From assembly GCA_016840855.1 (NCBI GenBank), contig JAEORO010000168.1:1-23436 (forward strand): 23,436 nucleotides of DNA, read 5' to 3'. The position numbers and the translations under genes are program-made. A model generated the notes under the pieces. The model ran no database searches. It had not been told where the DNA came from and was given only the letters and a program-made list of their open reading frames with translations. The DNA is from Candidatus Thorarchaeota archaeon. GTDB taxonomy: Archaea > Asgardarchaeota > Thorarchaeia > Thorarchaeales > Thorarchaeaceae. Below are positions 2,042 through 23,280 of the stretch, piece after piece. How positions within the stretch are numbered: position 1 is the stretch's first letter; each line of letters starts with the position of its first letter.

Positions 2042-2230
2042 CACTTGGCTGGGACGTCTAGCAGTGACATCATAGTGGCAATCAACAAAGATCCTGATGC
2101 TCCAATATTCAGTGTTGCTGACTTTAGAATTGTGAGTGACATCTTCGCAGTCTTTCCTGAGGTCATCGAGGCAGTCAAGAAGATTCAAGCTGAGAGATAG
2201 AGGTACACCCTCTATCCTCCTCATTTTATT
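2042..2230 (+). repeat. etfA: etfA 3'-end fragment copy 1 (pseudogene fragment) plus downstream hairpin
   Basis: Translates [52 protein letters not shown], the canonical EtfA C-terminus (QHxAGM...IVAINKDxxAPIFxxADxGIVGD). The rest of the gene is absent. Hairpin GATAGAGG-tacac-CCTCTATC at 2196-2216. Confidence 0.92.
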
Positions 2231-2304
2231 CTTTAACACATAAGTTGGTTCAGTAGCTTTTCCTACCTTGAGTTACGCTTCTAATTTAAAATAGAATCAA
2301 AGGT

Positions 2305-2859
2305 CTATATCATCTCTCGAAATTGATCATCATAATTCACATACTCTTTGTACTCTTCTGCGAAAACTGAAGGGATACTCTTGCCCAAATAACGTGCGAT
2401 TGAAGTAATTTGACCCCTATGATGAAGTTCGTCCTGATACGCATGATGAAGGAGTAACCAACCTCTGATTCCACGATGCCAAGGATTGTCATCTCTAATA
2501 TGTTCTAGCAGAGATGGATCGGTGTCCATACACCACTCTCTCACCAGAGTTTGGACCTCTTGAAGCCATTTCGATAGGCTCTCGGTGGTAGTAGTTGTCT
2601 TGAGTATGTGATTCGTCCAATCCATGTCTGGTTCGGAAGGTTTTGGCTCCCACCGTTCTTTGAGGACACCTCGTGCAACGAAGTATTGATGTCCTCCTAT
2701 ATGGTGAAAAAGTTCGCCGGTGGTTCTCCATTGTGGGACAAGACGGTATCCTAATTCCTCATCTTTGAAGAGGTTCAAGATCTTCAAAGTGACCATTCTA
2801 ACACTATCCCAATGATGGATAAATTGCCTGAGTGTTACATAGCAGAGATCTGGCGTCAA
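2305..2859 (-). CDS. DinB/YfiT family protein
   Basis: RTTGELFHHI and LLHHAYQDELHHRGQI His motifs. Colinear paralog of 14989-15576, which supports the TTG start. Confidence 0.88.
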   Translation of the reverse strand: MTPDLCYVTLRQFIHHWDSVRMVTLKILNLFKDEELGYRLVPQWRTTGELFHHIGGHQYFVARGVLKERWEPKPSEPDMDWTNHILKTTTTTESLSKWLQEVQTLVREWCMDTDPSLLEHIRDDNPWHRGIRGWLLLHHAYQDELHHRGQITSIARYLGKSIPSVFAEEYKEYVNYDDQFREMI

Positions 2860-3025
2860 AACAAACTGTCATCCTTTCCTTTAGTAGTGATAATGTTGCA
2901 GCACCCCTCTATAAAATATCAGATATCTATCTATTCTTTCTAGTGGATATAGTGCTTAGGCCGATTAGAGGCGCATCGCTTGATTTGATAAATTGGATGA
3001 AGAATTGCTATAGAAATTGGTGTAA

Positions 3026-3856
3026 CTAGAAATCTGAGAATCTCAGTTCCTTCTCAAATTCAAGAGCTTCTTCTGGGCAATTACGGCTGCAGACTCCACA
3101 TCCATAGCACATCTCAGTGTTCACTCTCGCGACACCACTCTCAGGATTGACCATTATGGCTCCGAAAGGACACACTTGCTCACAAACTCCACAACCAACG
3201 CATTTTTGTACAGCAACGACTGCTACATAATGTCCCCTATGGAATGGCTCCGAGATTCCAAGTCTCAGACGGTGCAAGTACGGATGACATACATCCATAT
3301 CACAATTACACAACATTCCAATATAGGGCACACCTACAGCAGATACTGCATGGACTACATTCTCCTCATCAGCCATTTTAATCATTATTTCAGCGGCTTC
3401 ATCTGGAGTCAGGTATTCATGCCTTCCCCCAAGATAATCTGGGAATTGTCTAGTGTAGATATCAGTGAACGCAATTCCGAAACAATGAAGTGTTTTCTCT
3501 CTCCCTAGTGCTTGATGTCGGCATATACAAGGGAATCGTACAACAGAGCGTTCATGTTCATCAGTTCTATTGTTGCAGAGATCTAATATCTGAATCACTT
3601 CATCAGTCGTTACTACCTGATGATGAAGATACCTCTGATATCTGGTTTCCACTCTTTGTCGCTCGTTGGGTACAATGGGTCGAGCAACTCTGGATTTCTG
3701 GTCTGAGAAGCCATCAGGGCCTGGTGCGATATTTCTAGAAAAATAGTTGTCCGCAAATTCCCTCACTAACTCACTTGTAGCTAGTTCCTTTGATAGATTC
3801 CTCGCATTCAAATACCATTTTTTACCAGCTCCATGCTGAACGCAGTATTCGCACAT
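3026..3856 (-). CDS. 4Fe-4S dicluster (ferredoxin-like) domain protein
   Basis: Two C-terminal CxxCxxCxxxCP motifs (CVGCGVCEQVCP, CYGCGVCSRNCP), plus N-terminal MCEYCxxHG, CxCR and CNCDxxxC motifs. Confidence 0.88.
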   Translation of the reverse strand: MCEYCVQHGAGKKWYLNARNLSKELATSELVREFADNYFSRNIAPGPDGFSDQKSRVARPIVPNERQRVETRYQRYLHHQVVTTDEVIQILDLCNNRTDEHERSVVRFPCICRHQALGREKTLHCFGIAFTDIYTRQFPDYLGGRHEYLTPDEAAEIMIKMADEENVVHAVSAVGVPYIGMLCNCDMDVCHPYLHRLRLGISEPFHRGHYVAVVAVQKCVGCGVCEQVCPFGAIMVNPESGVARVNTEMCYGCGVCSRNCPEEALEFEKELRFSDF

Positions 3857-4024
3857 GAATGGAAACCTGTAGTCCCTCTCTCATAATTGTCTATCTTCAT
3901 TTCTGTATCTAGGTACCGCTAGATTCTCAATTGCTGAAAGTCATCCATATTGATTTCGATTTTGAGGTTAAGTACTTGCTAGAATGGACGTATCATCATA
4001 AATCTCCCAAGCAATGTTAAAGCC

Positions 4025-4726
4025 ATGATTGTACTAAGGAGAGTTTCATCAATTAGCATAGTGGTAGATATCGACGATACACTACTTGATGTCAGAGAAC
4101 GATTACAACATATAATGTGTCAGATACTTGATTGTGTGGTGTCTCTAAATGATATGAGGAGGATGACAACAGCTCAGATATTCAAAAAGTATGCATCTTC
4201 TGCTCAAAAAGCCAAGGCCAAGGAATTGCATAAGAGATTCTGGGACATCACCCTATGCAAAGAAGATATTGGCTTTGATTTTCTTCATTTAGATGAACCA
4301 TTTCAAGATGCCGCAAAGGTGCTGGAAACTTGGAATGAAGAATTTCAGATTGTATATCTGACTGGACGCATTGAATCAACACGAAAATCCACGCTCTCAC
4401 AACTTAGAGCGCATGGATTTCCAATAGAGGGTACACAACTTGTTATGTTTCAATATGAGGAATATAAACAAGGAAGCTGGGCATTGGGTCTTGAGTCTGT
4501 TGGGCCCACACTGATGAAAATCAGATCAAAACATTTCTCTCTGATAGTCCAACAAACCCCTGTTCTGAAGGTTGTTGATGATTTCCCCGATTATTTCTCA
4601 ATCTATCGAAAATATGATATTCCAGAAATGATAGGGATGATTTCAACCCCCCACCACGAAGACCAGCATTTCTTAGACCAAGGAGCTACAAGAGTAATCA
4701 GATGCTGGAGTGAGCTCCTTGAATAG
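4025..4726 (+). CDS. HAD-superfamily hydrolase/phosphatase
   Basis: Motif I VVDIDDTLLD, motif II YLTGR, motif IV VVDD. Confidence 0.85.
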   Translation: MIVLRRVSSISIVVDIDDTLLDVRERLQHIMCQILDCVVSLNDMRRMTTAQIFKKYASSAQKAKAKELHKRFWDITLCKEDIGFDFLHLDEPFQDAAKVLETWNEEFQIVYLTGRIESTRKSTLSQLRAHGFPIEGTQLVMFQYEEYKQGSWALGLESVGPTLMKIRSKHFSLIVQQTPVLKVVDDFPDYFSIYRKYDIPEMIGMISTPHHEDQHFLDQGATRVIRCWSELLE

Positions 4727-21777: not shown

Positions 21778-21802
21778 CATTTTAGCTAGAATCCATTGTT
21801 TG

Positions 21803-21838
21803 GAATAGCCCTACAGTAATTGTAGGGCCATTCTTTTT
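21803..21838 (+). terminator. Stem-loop plus T-tract after the hydrolase gene
   Basis: GAATaGCCCTACA-gtaat-TGTAGGGCcATTC followed by TTTTT. Confidence 0.65.
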
Positions 21839-21854
21839 CTTGGTTTATCCAAAC

Positions 21855-21994
21855 CACCTTGTGGGTATGTCTTCATCAGATCTTGTGGTAGCAATCAATA
21901 AACAAGGCCCCTGATGCACCAATATTCAGTGTTGCTGACTTCGTAATTGTGGGTGACATTTTCGTAGTCTTGCCGAGGTCATTGAGGTGGTCAA
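21855..21994 (+). repeat. etfA: etfA 3'-end fragment copy 3 (frameshifted, lacks the last codons and hairpin)
   Basis: [15 protein letters not shown] / +4 nt / [23 protein letters not shown] / -1 nt / EVIEVV; similarity ends at GTCAA 21994. Confidence 0.88.
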
Positions 21995-22087
21995 TATTTT
22001 CCACTGCGCCTTTGCGCTTGTATGTAGAAATATATTAAATGAACTCCTGCTCGTCAACACAATGACGTGAGATTAGGAGAGAGTTAA

Positions 22088-23224
22088 TTGAATCGCAGAA
22101 GTTTCATTGTAATACTCCTTGTCATAATACTTGGTATTCAGACTTTCCCTTTTTCAGATGCAGAATATGTCCCCTCTAATATCACAGTCAAACCTGAGGT
22201 TAGAATGGGACACGTAATGGTATTTGATCCCCACAACGATGTCGCTGTGATTTTTGGCGGCTTGAGTGTGGAAGGTGGAATGCATTTTCTTGGAGACACA
22301 TGGGTCTATTCATACACTGAAAATTCCTGGACTGAACTCGAGCTGACGTCTTCTCCACCTTCTGACGATAATACCGCAATGGTCTATTGTAATGAAACAA
22401 ATGAAATCATCTTCTATGGCGGAGATTCCAATCCAGAAACATGGTCGTTTGCCTGCGAAACTCAGACATGGTCTCGAGTTACAACATCTGTCAATCCAGG
22501 GTTTCGAGACTCACATGCTATGGTATATGATTCACAGGAGAATGTTGTCATTCTTTTCGGAGGCTTTGGAGGAGATGGACAAATCACAGACGATCTTTGG
22601 ATGTTCAACTGCAGCAGTCGACAGTGGACAGAGCTCTTTCCATTAACAAGACCTCTTGCACGTTATGGACATGTCATGGTCTATGACCAGTCCATCAATA
22701 AAACAGTCATGACCGGTGGGAATACAAATTCCGAAGGTTACCAAGATGATACTTGGATATACACAACATCCACAAACGATTGGACTGAGTTGACACCAAT
22801 CGGAACTCCCGACGCACTGAAATGGTCATCAATGACATATGATTCAGTGAATCAGAAGTGCACAATGTTCGGAGGTGTGAATGGAGAAGATCATGCAGTT
22901 AACTACACTTGGGTTTATGATGGTTCATTGAACACATGGTCACGATGTTATCCAACTACAGCTCCTGCAGGAAGGATAAATGCTGGTCTTACCTTTGATT
23001 TGAATAATAATGTAGTAATCCTGTTTGGCGGCATGGTCGATTATGAGAATCACTTTGATGATACATGGACCTACTCTTATGAGAGTAATATCTGGATAGA
23101 CATGGAAGAGAATTCTGACACAACGCCAAACAATTTTGGTTTTGATCCAATGCCAATTGCCTTAGCATCGGTAATCGGTGCTGCAGTCATTGCTATAACT
23201 CTTATCATTCGCAAGAAGACCTGA
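22088..23224 (+). CDS. Membrane-anchored secreted Kelch-repeat (beta-propeller) protein
   Basis: Signal peptide; six repeats of the type R-x-G-H-x-M-V-Y-D...FGG...DTW-x-Y...W; C-terminal TM plus RKK; AGGAGA upstream of the TTG. Confidence 0.92.
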   Translation: MNRRSFIVILLVIILGIQTFPFSDAEYVPSNITVKPEVRMGHVMVFDPHNDVAVIFGGLSVEGGMHFLGDTWVYSYTENSWTELELTSSPPSDDNTAMVYCNETNEIIFYGGDSNPETWSFACETQTWSRVTTSVNPGFRDSHAMVYDSQENVVILFGGFGGDGQITDDLWMFNCSSRQWTELFPLTRPLARYGHVMVYDQSINKTVMTGGNTNSEGYQDDTWIYTTSTNDWTELTPIGTPDALKWSSMTYDSVNQKCTMFGGVNGEDHAVNYTWVYDGSLNTWSRCYPTTAPAGRINAGLTFDLNNNVVILFGGMVDYENHFDDTWTYSYESNIWIDMEENSDTTPNNFGFDPMPIALASVIGAAVIAITLIIRKKT

Positions 23225-23280
23225 AATCATCGAGGCGGTCAAGAAGACTCATGCTGAGAGATAGAGGACCCCCTCTATCT
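23220..23280 (+). repeat. etfA: etfA 3'-end fragment copy 4 (last 14 codons, stop and hairpin)
   Basis: CCT GAA ATC ATC GAG GCG GTC AAG AAG ACT CAT GCT GAG AGA TAG (PEIIEAVKKTHAER*); hairpin AGATAGAGG-accc-CCTCTATCT at 23259-23280. Confidence 0.88.

Follow-up and report, generated by a model that had tools for sequence, protein, structure and literature searches.

The prophages e14 and phage 21 of Escherichia coli integrate in the 3′ part of a metabolic gene, icd. They supply a replacement for its last ~50 codons, icd being kept intact and the old end left on the far side, and are 15–40 kb in size with their own integrase beside the att site. In Streptococcus thermophilus, ICESt1, ICESt3 and integrase-less CIMEs accumulate at the fda 3′ end by accretion at one att site. 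Some of these CIMEs have no recombination gene and are bounded by att-like direct repeats alone, and their mobilisation in trans has been proposed; the att cores at this site are short, and an autonomous ICE with an integrase is known there. For the integrated elements of Archaea, the main text passages of a survey report protein-gene targets in 14 of the 68 elements with defined sites, the gene end being restored, and arrays from the re-use of one site by casposons in ef-2 and by elements with tyrosine recombinases. According to the same passages these elements span kilobases to tens of kilobases, carry an integrase or casposase and generally have short att sites or TSDs; etfA is absent among the target genes named in them. 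Integrons have been reported in Archaea too (PMC9668308).

The window described here is the entire contig (C115; 23,436 nt) of a Candidatus Thorarchaeota MAG, bin G000 (3.36 Mb, 6.3% contamination), and the genomes with which it was compared are MAGs throughout. It is probably the distal part of an additive array built by Campbell-type insertions into the etfA 3′ end, a hot spot for such events. As with e14 and phage 21 in icd, most differences between the two ends are synonymous. Unlike these prophages, the inserted pieces lack a recombinase and hold one or two ordinary genes; as many as four or five ends follow one another, and the host is an Asgard archaeon. Tandem accumulation at the 3′ end of a metabolic gene is a feature of the fda elements as well; here, however, the repeat is 150–250 nt of coding sequence and no autonomous partner was found. 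In contrast to the archaeal casposons, Cas1 is absent from G000. No description of etfA 3′-end arrays was found in the literature searched, in agreement with the initial annotation, which knew of none in archaea.

Gene ends and cargo blocks of the window

Four copies of the etfA 3′ end, comprising ~16–56 of the last codons each, were found on the plus strand, all of them where the initial annotation had placed them. Copy 1 (2042–2230) is displaced and comprises 52 sense codons with a TAG and a hairpin (2192–2219); it aligns at 76.7% with the 3′-terminal part of the intact gene in the closest relative, locus L051 (11075–11237). Copy 2 (19411–19655), likewise displaced, has its coding part at 19411–19563, followed by TAG and a hairpin at 19554–19586; weaker homology runs on to ~19655, with ~60 nt resembling the native etfA-downstream sequence of relatives. 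In both copies 52 unbroken codons lead to the TAG, and the encoded protein is 88–92% identical to the EtfA C-terminus. Copy 3 (21855–21994) is decayed, having a 4-nt insertion and ending ~12 codons before the stop. Copy 4 (23220–23285) consists of the last 16 codons, a TAG and a hairpin (23256–23283), and begins at the TGA of a Kelch ORF (22088–23224); locus L038 has the same Kelch-to-fragment junction. Folding supported the claimed stop-codon hairpins of copies 1, 2 and 4 (−14.8, −18.5 and −17.3 kcal/mol, respectively; z −3.7 to −4.8), with none of 200 shuffles folding equally well, and gave no hairpin for copy 3 (z −0.2).

A repeat search aligned copies 1 and 2 (2048–2230 vs. 19411–19593) at 87% identity over 183 nt, including an exact 48-mer, and returned repeat families of 79 nt (including 21896–21974) and 48 nt (including 23220–23267). 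The copies differ by 11–25%, copies 1 and 2 by 11%, and copy 2 is closest to copy 1 (88.7%), then to the displaced end of L042 (84.7%). When 2042–2230 was searched against the whole bin, it matched copy 2 (E 4.7e-59), copy 3 (1.6e-23) and copy 4 (7.8e-15); there were two more matches, both on contig C86, and no others. The copies are essentially intergenic, as had been stated, save for copy 2, which is overlapped by an antisense ORF. This ORF (19366–19650, 94 aa) had no Pfam match. The body of etfA is not in the window, since full-length EtfA matched residues 358–410 only by tblastn, and Pfam detected no integrase or transposase in the 25 ORFs of the window; on all three counts the initial annotation was borne out.

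The blocks delimited by these copies were described initially as ~17 kb of enzymes and regulators, one hydrolase and one Kelch protein, a description which Pfam confirmed. Leftmost, before copy 1, lies the innermost cargo seen (1–2041, minus strand), with an ORF of 95 aa (2–286) that runs off the contig and has a hydrophobic N-terminus, and one of 486 aa (502–1962) with a weak HTH_20 match alone. This DNA had matches in none of 80 other genomes of the family. The next block (2231–19410, 17.2 kb) carries ~21 genes on both strands, with Pfam matches to two DinB genes, a Fer4 protein, two HAD hydrolases, an aldo/keto reductase, an aldo/keto reductase-Fer4 fusion, a metallo-beta-lactamase-fold protein, wHTH and PadR regulators, MFS pieces, PNPOx, ATC hydrolase, a xylose-isomerase-like TIM barrel, a PGI-like SIS protein and a CAAX protease. 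Two single-gene blocks on the plus strand follow. The first encodes a 630-aa alpha/beta hydrolase (19885–21777; DUF676/PGAP1-like, with a bacterial TSP3 repeat), a singleton when 13 related loci were clustered. The second encodes the Kelch beta-propeller protein (22088–23224; 378 aa, with a hydrophobic stretch C-terminal). Positions 21991–23267 are 77.8% identical over 1290 nt to L038 6376–7653, and this homology starts at the right edge of copy 3 (21991); in L038 the Kelch gene is flanked on either side by a short etfA end, with an intact etfA upstream.

Recurrence at the etfA locus of Thorarchaeota

Of the non-redundant Thorarchaeota etfBA loci compared, 33 have at least 2 kb of downstream sequence, and 13 of these carry one to three extra etfA ends, as does L040, which falls below the threshold (1.97 kb). 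At least 20 fragments were found in relatives, every one downstream of etfA and on the same strand; the only minus-strand matches were two ~50-nt self-matches of the palindromic hairpin. Extra ends were present in further genera of the family (G154, G157 and G186), and in none of 36 bacterial control loci or of 69 metagenome loci with a long etfA match. In the 13 loci compared, the left flank is constantly etfB-etfA and the right flank starts with a 161-aa membrane protein, followed by F4, F5, F6 and two ABC transporters. The flanks enclose variable cargo, in pieces of 0.3–3.4 kb with one or two genes, mostly singletons and in both orientations. In L043, L044 and L045, which have no fragments, etfA runs straight into the conserved flank. 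The 3′ end of etfA is therefore a likely hot spot in Thorarchaeota at which foreign DNA has been inserted repeatedly.

Comparison with L051 provides an empty and an occupied state of the same site. In L051 an intact etfA is directly followed by DNA syntenic with window positions 2312–12359 (80–87% identity), which in the window is preceded by copy 1 instead. The synteny break falls at the left edge of copy 1, and the position of the block to its left is occupied in L051 by the etfA body. As the intact gene of L051 stands exactly at the position of copy 1, an intact etfA should lie to the left of the window. The proposal of an additive cassette array at the etfA 3′ end thus holds for the anatomy, found in 13 of the 33 loci, its intact gene being expected beyond the left edge of the contig. 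The view of the blocks as captured cargo fits the variable pieces of relatives and fails for the 17.2-kb block, which belongs to the resident DNA behind etfA in the L051/window lineage and is not ordinary foreign cargo, because it lies directly 3′ of the intact gene in L051, in whose genome (G041) it is present once only.

The window probably derives from a second, co-binned population. Two related populations seem to be present in G000, where counterparts of the 17.2-kb block, 67–76% identical, lie on contigs C68 and C16. The only intact etfA of the bin, on C86, has its own short array and is joined to other contigs, and neither end of C115 overlaps any other contig of the bin.

Exchange of gene ends and proposed route of insertion

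Differences between a fragment and the working end of its own genome are concentrated at third codon positions, with counts at positions 1/2/3 of 7/1/28 (C86), 11/4/31 (L042), 6/0/19 (L041), 1/1/12 (L079), 10/5/27 (L040) and 15/8/36 (L060) (binomial P 6e-8 to 9e-5). This excess argues that the copies diverged as working ends in different lineages rather than as decaying local duplicates. By this pattern the copies are xenologous, as the initial annotation suggested in comparing them with e14 and icd. Nine of the 14 fragments that could be tested have a nearer relative than their own working end, which in four of these ranks 16th to 31st of 58. Hairpin types are swapped as well, the working end of C86 having H1 and its fragment H2, and L042 the reverse. 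Among C86, L037 and L051 the etfA body is 86–87% identical, compared with 71–72% for the last 50 codons, the drop beginning at the left edge of the fragments. In L038/L046 and L056/L044 body and end are similar (91 vs. 87% and 88 vs. 85%), and the end therefore does not simply evolve faster. These comparisons show that working ends were replaced in close relatives.

Under the favored scheme, a circular DNA would arrive with its own last ~55 etfA codons, stop and terminator-like hairpin. A crossover with the chromosomal gene would occur at or just inside the left edge of this segment, at about His-Leu-Ala-Gly-Met (residue ~355–360 of 410). The incoming end would take over as the working end of etfA, with the cargo coming next, and the previous end would be displaced downstream as a dead fragment beside the old flank. 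Repetition would give the order body, newest end, cargo, older end, cargo, oldest end and native flank. The circular intermediate, the crossover position and the participation of an enzyme are inferred parts of this scheme.

As claimed initially, the arrays and their surroundings yielded no recombinase: besides the window ORFs, nine cargo proteins of relatives and ten conserved flank proteins were negative. G000 had no match to PF00589, PF00239, PF01797 or PF01867 and one TnpB, on a contig other than the window. In the genus, PF00589 and PF00239 were each found in 8 of 28 genomes, with no match on an etfA contig, and neither was found in the array-bearing G000, G004, G005, G007, G012 and G017. 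Virus or plasmid hallmark genes were detected in no cargo, scans of viral contigs yielded no extrachromosomal element with an etfA end, and contigs of four runs, which cannot show rare forms, contained no repeat-repeat joint (circle or deletion).

The same anatomy could possibly arise in the absence of a dedicated enzyme, although we regard this as the less probable course. Homologous recombination between array repeats, of the same cell or of a related donor, might yield circles, which would conceivably re-integrate by a single crossover anywhere in the ~150–250 nt shared with the recipient etfA end; more tentatively, the common left edge might stem from one old duplication and the shorter fragments from later deletions. 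The lack of a recombinase in cargo, flanks and most array-bearing genomes favors this, as do the length of the repeat (150–250 nt) with its runs of identity, such as the 48-mer of copies 1 and 2, and the absence of anything conserved (no arm) to the left of the fragments. An ABM-like gene block shared across genera, by C86 and G157:C44 (89% over 612 nt), supports the insertion scheme. In this comparison most cargo windows have 26–30 matches in 30 and those inside the etfA fragment 20–27 in 30; identity declines gradually over ~100 nt with no single drop point, which fits homologous recombination and gives no fixed place for the crossover.

The left edges bear on both readings. Copies 1–3, C86b, L037, L042, L060 and L079 share an edge within ~20 nt despite unrelated upstream cargo. 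Variation is only downward, as homologous recombination would have it: the L041 and L047 fragments start ~10 codons downstream, the junction of the Kelch block lies 16 codons short of the stop, one piece in L038 amounts to barely more than a hairpin, and no fragment extends further into etfA than the common edge. However, with so many unrelated cargos abutting one edge, repeated cargo turnover up to that point would be needed. Moreover, copies within one array are mostly 64–80% identical and a poor substrate, and the origin of the first duplication is left unexplained. A classical integrase trace is also present in the bin, on C249, where a 63-nt copy of the 3′ part of tRNA-Asp lies 1.5 kb downstream of the gene and three accessory genes occupy the interval. 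A site-specific recombinase supplied in trans, or one on unbinned or lost elements, is somewhat more likely than plain homologous recombination.

Local duplications by unequal crossing-over or replication slippage, decayed in place with blocks inserted later or co-duplicated, are a very improbable source. In several units the hairpin is indeed followed by a piece of native downstream sequence, as expected of a tandem duplication, and the own working end is nearest for five of the 14 fragments, the closest pair (L079) being 93% identical. However, a dead copy would change evenly, and the second-position differences of 0–8 against 12–36 at third positions (even the L079 pair shows the bias) therefore imply that most divergence arose while both copies were working ends. 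With the mosaic working ends of close relatives, which change from the same point, and the swapped hairpins, local duplication is already contradicted for most copies.

Least credible of all is an artefact, be it an assembler chimera at the conserved etfA of co-occurring strains or a mis-binned mixture: contamination, the two apparent populations, the shared 48-mer and the contigs of two relatives that break at etfA residue 363–364 (L054, L084) would be in keeping with it, but non-etfA sequence lies left of every copy, which the joining of real etfA genes would not create, the copies are 11–25% apart, 48 nt is far below the 127-nt overlaps between bin contigs, Logan contigs of the source sample (an independent assembly) bridge 18812–19457 and 19541–21974, all 30 of 30 bins of 2000–21999 are covered by a run from a separate study (40 of 56 pieces at ≥99% identity), and 13 other loci, drawn from many studies and different assemblers, show the same anatomy, so that the initial dismissal of an assembly artefact appears sound.

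Integrons, genomic islands and the etfA site

The array had been called integron-like, which is apt for its outcome: behind a fixed chromosomal dock, small units of mostly one gene each are lined up, which carry no recombinase and have a hairpin-bearing repeat between them. It is nevertheless not an integron. No IntI occurs next to the array or elsewhere in the genome, the repeat is coding sequence and not attC, cargo orientation is mixed in relatives, and a shared cargo gene is not accompanied in its transfer by the repeat downstream of it.

Closer parallels in anatomy are offered by the genomic islands at tRNA and tmRNA genes, with direct repeats of the 3′ part of the target, additive arrays and frequent loss of the integrase, one case being that at tRNA-Asp in the same bin. 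In contrast to these islands, the target is a protein gene, and the repeat therefore keeps a readable record of selection in its codon positions; the working end has also visibly been exchanged between lineages. Integration into gene 3′ ends with the formation of additive arrays is known, and what appears to be new is etfA as the site, in Thorarchaeota.

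Copies of the etfA end in the window and in the bin

The window spans the full contig C115 (23,436 bp) of a Candidatus Thorarchaeota metagenome-assembled genome (the bin; 259 contigs, 92% complete, 6.3% contamination). It was confirmed to possess repeated copies of the etfA 3′ end, and comparative evidence supports the reading of these as an additive array of displaced ends. A repeat search, a whole-bin search and the reading frames all returned the four copies of the sequence coding for the EtfA C-terminus that the initial annotation reported, each on the plus strand. Copies 1 (2042–2230) and 2 (19411–19593) have 52 uninterrupted codons followed by TAG, copy 3 (21855–21994) carries a 4-nt insertion and is truncated ahead of the stop, and copy 4 (23220–23280) consists of the final 16 codons and begins at the stop codon of a Kelch gene (22088–23224). 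The repeat is the coding end of etfA followed by a perfect stem of 9–14 bp. Folding of copies 1, 2 and 4 gave hairpins which take in the TAG (−14.8 to −18.5 kcal/mol, z −3.7 to −4.8), as had been noted for three of the copies, and no hairpin was found by folding at copy 3. The stop-codon hairpins were not listed by a simple terminator scan of 18500–23436, because their tails fall below its T-richness rule. No Rfam family was found at the gathering threshold in the window, in positions 1–16000 of C86 (the bin contig with the intact etfA) or in contig C54. Copy 2 is trailed by ~60 nt of sequence which is native downstream of etfA in other genomes.

Beyond the four copies no further part of etfA was detected in the window, and a Pfam scan of its 25 ORFs gave no integrase or transposase domains, in keeping with the reported absence of an intact etfA, an integrase and a transposase. 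The 486-aa protein left of copy 1 yielded a weak HTH match in Pfam and nothing else. The 17-kb block between copies 1 and 2 (2231–19410) holds two paralogue pairs, namely two DinB-family genes (2305–2859 and 14989–15576) and two aldo/keto reductase genes (5857–6867 and 13013–14092). One of the reductases is fused to a 4Fe-4S domain, and a 73% identical copy of this fused form lies directly after the displaced etfA end of C86.

The earlier view that an assembly artefact is unlikely was upheld, as the copies differ by 11–25%, each has non-etfA DNA to its left, and independent contigs of the source run span the left junction of copy 2 as well as all the sequence between copies 2 and 3. In a run that came from a different study, each of the 30 bins of the compared 20 kb (2000–21999) was covered, mostly at 99% identity or more, and parts of 18500–23436 were present in 20 sequencing runs from 8 studies. 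Contigs of 4 runs over 2000–21999, which cannot show rare circles or deletions, contained no joint between repeats; the one joint seen was a 100-nt skip at 10193–10294 in a single contig.

The whole-bin search gave six etfA-end copies in total, every one on C115 or C86, so that the copies are not dispersed. The sole intact etfA of the bin, on C86, is a ferredoxin-ETF fusion of 410 aa situated behind etfB and hdr-like genes. It is followed by a short array of its own, comprising a 106-aa ABM-like gene and one further etfA end (C86:4802–4953). C86 is linked to C92, C16 and C252 by end overlaps of 122–127 nt, and no end overlaps were found between C115 and other bin contigs. Second versions of the genes of the 17-kb block are present in the bin on C68 and C16 at 67–76% identity (window 2312–17300 compared), while the genome of the closest relative (locus L051) has a single version of the block; therefore two Thorarchaeota populations are probably mixed in the bin. 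C115 most likely belongs to the second, co-binned population, the etfA of which is absent from the bin. The additive array proposed initially stands on comparative evidence, and the placement of the intact gene to the left of the window is inferred: C86 with its etfA joins other contigs, and an intact gene at the head of the window's array is presumed to lie off the contig.

Recurrence and cargo of the arrays in related genomes

A DNA search of 41 related genomes showed that several have a contig with two or three copies, all on one strand. These multi-copy loci were fetched together with 38 named Thorarchaeota loci, and seven duplicate-contig loci, nine with less than 2 kb downstream and one without a full etfA were left out of the count. 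Thirteen of the 33 remaining loci possess extra etfA ends, one to three each, with an intact etfA heading the array; L040 (1.97 kb downstream) also has one extra end. In total, at least 20 fragments were found, all 3′ of an intact etfBA and on the same strand, and etfA is intact in every array that includes the gene. As controls, bacterial etfA loci (0 of 36) and metagenome loci listed with a long etfA hit (0 of 69) had no extra ends. The metagenome scan, which served as a control only, returned at least 80 loci at 56–74% identity, and among the matches listed none was as close as the Thorarchaeota loci (72–96%). A phylum-wide search recovered short-frame copies in other genera of the family (genomes G154, G157 and G186) and hardly anywhere else. 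An etfA-end match with an open frame of just 53 aa in another family of the phylum (G126:C305:2675–2809) may be a fragment outside the Thorarchaeota family. The contigs of loci L054 and L084 stop at etfA residue 363–364, just inside the left edge of the repeat, as is expected if several diverged copies of the end split the assembly graph there.

Clustering of all ORFs of 13 loci and the window revealed conserved flanks, with etfB and etfA on the left and, on the right, a gene for a convergent 161-aa membrane protein followed by F4, F5 and F6 and two ABC transporters. The conserved neighbours of the locus are housekeeping genes, with phosphoglucomutase, a TPR protein, ribosomal protein S19, an HTH protein and a methyltransferase. 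The cargo between the flanks comes in pieces of 0.3–3.4 kb that bear one or two genes, oriented either way, and most pieces are unique to one genome. The final fragment usually adjoins the conserved right flank, as expected if insertions land between the gene body and the old end. In the contig chain rc(C86)-C92-rc(C16)-C252, joined through the 122–127-nt overlaps, the stretch running from F4 to the pair of ABC transporters is inverted compared with all relatives examined, with one breakpoint directly after the displaced etfA end of C86.

Empty sites with a synteny break at the repeat were observed for L051 against the window and for L043, L044 and L045 against L042 and others. Comparison of the locus downstream of etfA across relatives, proposed initially as a check, accordingly gave cargo that varies between conserved flanks and synteny that breaks at the repeat. 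In L051 an intact etfA is directly followed by DNA syntenic with window 2312–12359 at 80–87%. In the window, copy 1 occupies the position of the end of this working gene, and the 2 kb left of copy 1 had no DNA matches in 80 other family genomes. Copy 1 therefore represents a displaced end, with an insertion of unique DNA on its left. The 17-kb block belongs to the resident DNA of the lineage and is not typical cargo, although it lies between copies 1 and 2. Two pieces of cargo are shared more widely: the Kelch gene and the short fragments on either side of it are common to the window and L038 (77.8% over 1290 nt, with the same junction), and the ABM block is common to C86 and contig C44 of G157, a genome of another genus (89% over 612 nt).

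Exchange of gene ends and candidate mechanisms

A decaying local duplicate would differ from its source evenly over the codon positions, and the observed differences are uneven. Between fragment and working end, differences at codon positions 1/2/3 number 7/1/28 in C86, 11/4/31 in L042, 6/0/19 in L041, 1/1/12 in L079, 10/5/27 in L040 and 15/8/36 in L060, with a binomial P for the third-position excess of 6e-8 to 9e-5; change is more even in older copies (L036: 16/16/27). Of the 14 fragments that could be tested, nine have a nearest relative other than the working end of their own genome. The post-stop hairpin exists in several types which are swapped, the working end of C86 having type H1 and its fragment H2, with the reverse in L042. 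Furthermore, the working ends of C86, L037 and L051 are mosaic, being 86–87% identical in the gene body and 71–72% in the last 50 codons, the drop beginning at the position where the fragments start; two other close pairs have almost no drop toward the end. Third-position excess, hairpin swaps and mosaic ends therefore indicate that each end was mostly a working gene end in some lineage, and that etfA ends are exchanged together with cargo. The two genera with the 89% identical ABM block have etfA ends that are about 70–76% identical.

Judged from the sequences, the simplest process to account for all of these observations would be a single crossover joining the etfA end of the chromosome to a circular DNA that bears an etfA end of its own. 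The incoming end would be joined to the gene body, with the cargo placed behind it and the old end displaced. Fragments with unrelated cargo have left edges that agree within ~20 nt, at the codons His-Leu-Ala-Gly-Met, and none of the fragments extends further into etfA than this shared edge. Shorter fragments were seen in L041, in L047, at the Kelch junction and as one hairpin-only piece, and can be read as later deletions. The right edge is variable and may take in native downstream sequence. In the comparison of C86 with G157:C44, cargo windows are mostly identical at 26–30 of 30 positions, the first 50 nt of the fragment at 27 and 25 of 30, and the sequence thereafter at 20–26 of 30; thus the exchange took place at or shortly inside the left edge and is not fixable to one base. 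Comparative mapping likewise puts the exchange at the left edge or within about 50 nt of it.

Repeats around accessory genes also occur elsewhere in the bin. On C249 the 3′ part of a tRNA-Asp gene (113–190) recurs as a 63-nt copy (1704–1766, 97% identical) 1.5 kb further downstream on the gene's strand, with small genes for a DUF2157-like membrane protein, a 4HBT thioesterase and hemerythrin and no integrase between the two. This anatomy is that of the etfA arrays and may suggest that the process is not confined to etfA. On C41 a 183-nt direct repeat (4696–4878 and 7700–7882, 96% identical) surrounds a single 898-aa gene; it is made up of the final 14 codons of a 106-aa ORF and the 140 nt that follow, and may be a recent event of like kind at another gene.

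Insertion at the 3′ end of a protein gene in a way that restores the gene is known from icd/e14 and fda/ICESt. The etfA arrays share with the icd/e14 type the direct repeats of the target gene's 3′ end, lying downstream in the orientation of the gene (in the window and in 13 of 33 loci), a target kept intact by the new end with mostly synonymous differences between old and new (the window's own intact gene being off the contig), and an empty site in a close relative. They differ in that the icd/e14 type has an integrase inside the element by the att site, and none was found among the 25 window ORFs or nine cargo proteins of relatives. In archaea, 3′-distal regions of protein genes are described as the targets of 14 of 68 thaumarchaeal integrated elements, and arrays arising by re-use of a site have been described for archaeal integrated elements (PMC6563490). 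The etfA arrays differ from these systems in having one or two ordinary genes per piece, free of recombinases and hallmarks, as well as in array depth, in their spread over a whole Asgard family and in the target gene. The initial statement that no description at etfA in archaea was known agrees with literature searches on Asgard mobile elements, archaeal integrons and archaeal protein-gene integration (supplementary files left out), in which neither etfA as an insertion site nor the array was found.

An integron proper has a gene for an IntI-type tyrosine recombinase beside its array, and a CALIN is an attC cluster lacking the integrase. The attC sites are non-coding imperfect palindromes with R/L boxes and extrahelical bases, and a cassette is a gene which moves together with its own site. 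In contrast, the etfA array has no IntI nearby or in the bin, its repeat is a coding end with a perfect 9–14 bp stem that by its features does not look like an attC, its cargo lies in both orientations, and the repeat after the ABM gene, at 20–26 of 30, does not keep pace with the cargo, most windows of which are at 26–30 of 30. The term "integron-like", as used initially, therefore holds for the outcome only, and the array is not an integron. A casposon has a Cas1 casposase, terminal inverted repeats and a short target-site duplication; it was rejected as there is no PF01867 in the bin, the repeat search of the window gave no inverted repeats bounding the blocks, and the etfA repeats are not a target duplication because they are 60–190 nt long and xenologous. 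A dispersed MITE- or REP-like repeat was dismissed, as the six bin copies are confined to C115 and C86 and those of relatives lie downstream of etfA on its strand.

With regard to the catalyst, PF00589 is absent from the window ORFs and from the whole bin, in which no tyrosine or serine recombinase, Y1 transposase or Cas1 was detected, and no recombinases were found in the nine cargo proteins of relatives or among ten conserved neighbours. About 25 inserted pieces contained neither mobile-element hallmarks nor recombinases. Across the genus, tyrosine recombinases (PF00589) occur in eight of 28 genomes and serine recombinases in eight of 28, none of either type on the etfA contigs of these genomes, and six array-bearing genomes lack both. 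The occurrence of PF00589 in 8 of 28 genus genomes and its absence from the 92% complete bin also mean that these genomes, as binned, have no Xer-like recombinase. An enzyme borne by the element may possibly exist outside the binned contigs, because MAG binning tends to lose mobile elements. Given the Campbell-type anatomy, an enzyme of the site-specific kind that works in trans or has since disappeared is placed somewhat ahead, at a little short of an even chance, because of the shared left edge, the strict orientation and the low identity of copies within arrays, and because the classical duplication of the tRNA-Asp 3′ part encloses three accessory genes in the bin. Given the same anatomy, homologous recombination without a dedicated enzyme has perhaps one chance in three; the repeat is long, identity declines gradually, and there is neither a conserved arm nor an enzyme in evidence. 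More speculatively, and rather doubtfully at present, Thorarchaeota may run a previously undescribed gene-capture platform, in which the end of etfA, an essential metabolic gene, would serve as a permanent docking site for circles of one or two genes that carry replacement ends and pass among species and genera. Lacking recombinases themselves, the circles would insert through the agency of an unrecognised enzyme of the host or of an element, at the His-Leu-Ala-Gly-Met codons, or of recombination with no dedicated enzyme.

Viral contigs were searched for partners. The 51-aa etfA end gave no match, and an alignment of 22 ends gave four loci, two of which are full bacterial-type etfA genes. The other two, L137 and L138, are on giant-virus-labelled contigs with an etfA end of mitochondrial type and were judged unrelated. 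The L138 C-terminal piece (9181–9339) is intergenic with no gene body, its neighbouring WW/UCH, TFIIB, patatin, RING and protein kinase genes fitting a giant virus, and the L137 piece is located at the contig start (1–150). The single TnpB gene of the bin (C54:2872–4095) and a ParE-like toxin gene lie beside a ~100-nt intergenic repeat found on C54 (2452–2565, 4471–4599 and 8129–8232) and in four copies on C230 (1449, 3223, 4453 and 5885); these may be IS605-type ends or guide-RNA regions, with no Rfam match on C54.

Significance for gene acquisition in Asgard archaea

The etfA end is a recurrent entry point, seen at ~40% of the Thorarchaeota loci compared and spread over at least four genera. 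As the repeat is coding, every insertion leaves a dated, readable scar, and the sequence shows in which order the events took place, how gene ends were exchanged among lineages and how single genes moved from one genus to another. The repeats also explain assembly breaks at etfA residue ~360. The array is a good marker of strain-level variation, and junction PCR on sediments or enrichments can be aimed at the defined left edge of the repeat. The absence of recognisable recombinases poses the question of what catalyses integration, the tyrosine and serine types being missing from most genomes of the genus as binned. Even if the arrays are remnants left by an ordinary integrase, they would still extend integration at the 3′ ends of protein genes to Asgard archaea. 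These archaea have large genomes with many acquired genes and the route of their DNA uptake is poorly known, and the arrays are of real interest for gene acquisition in this group.
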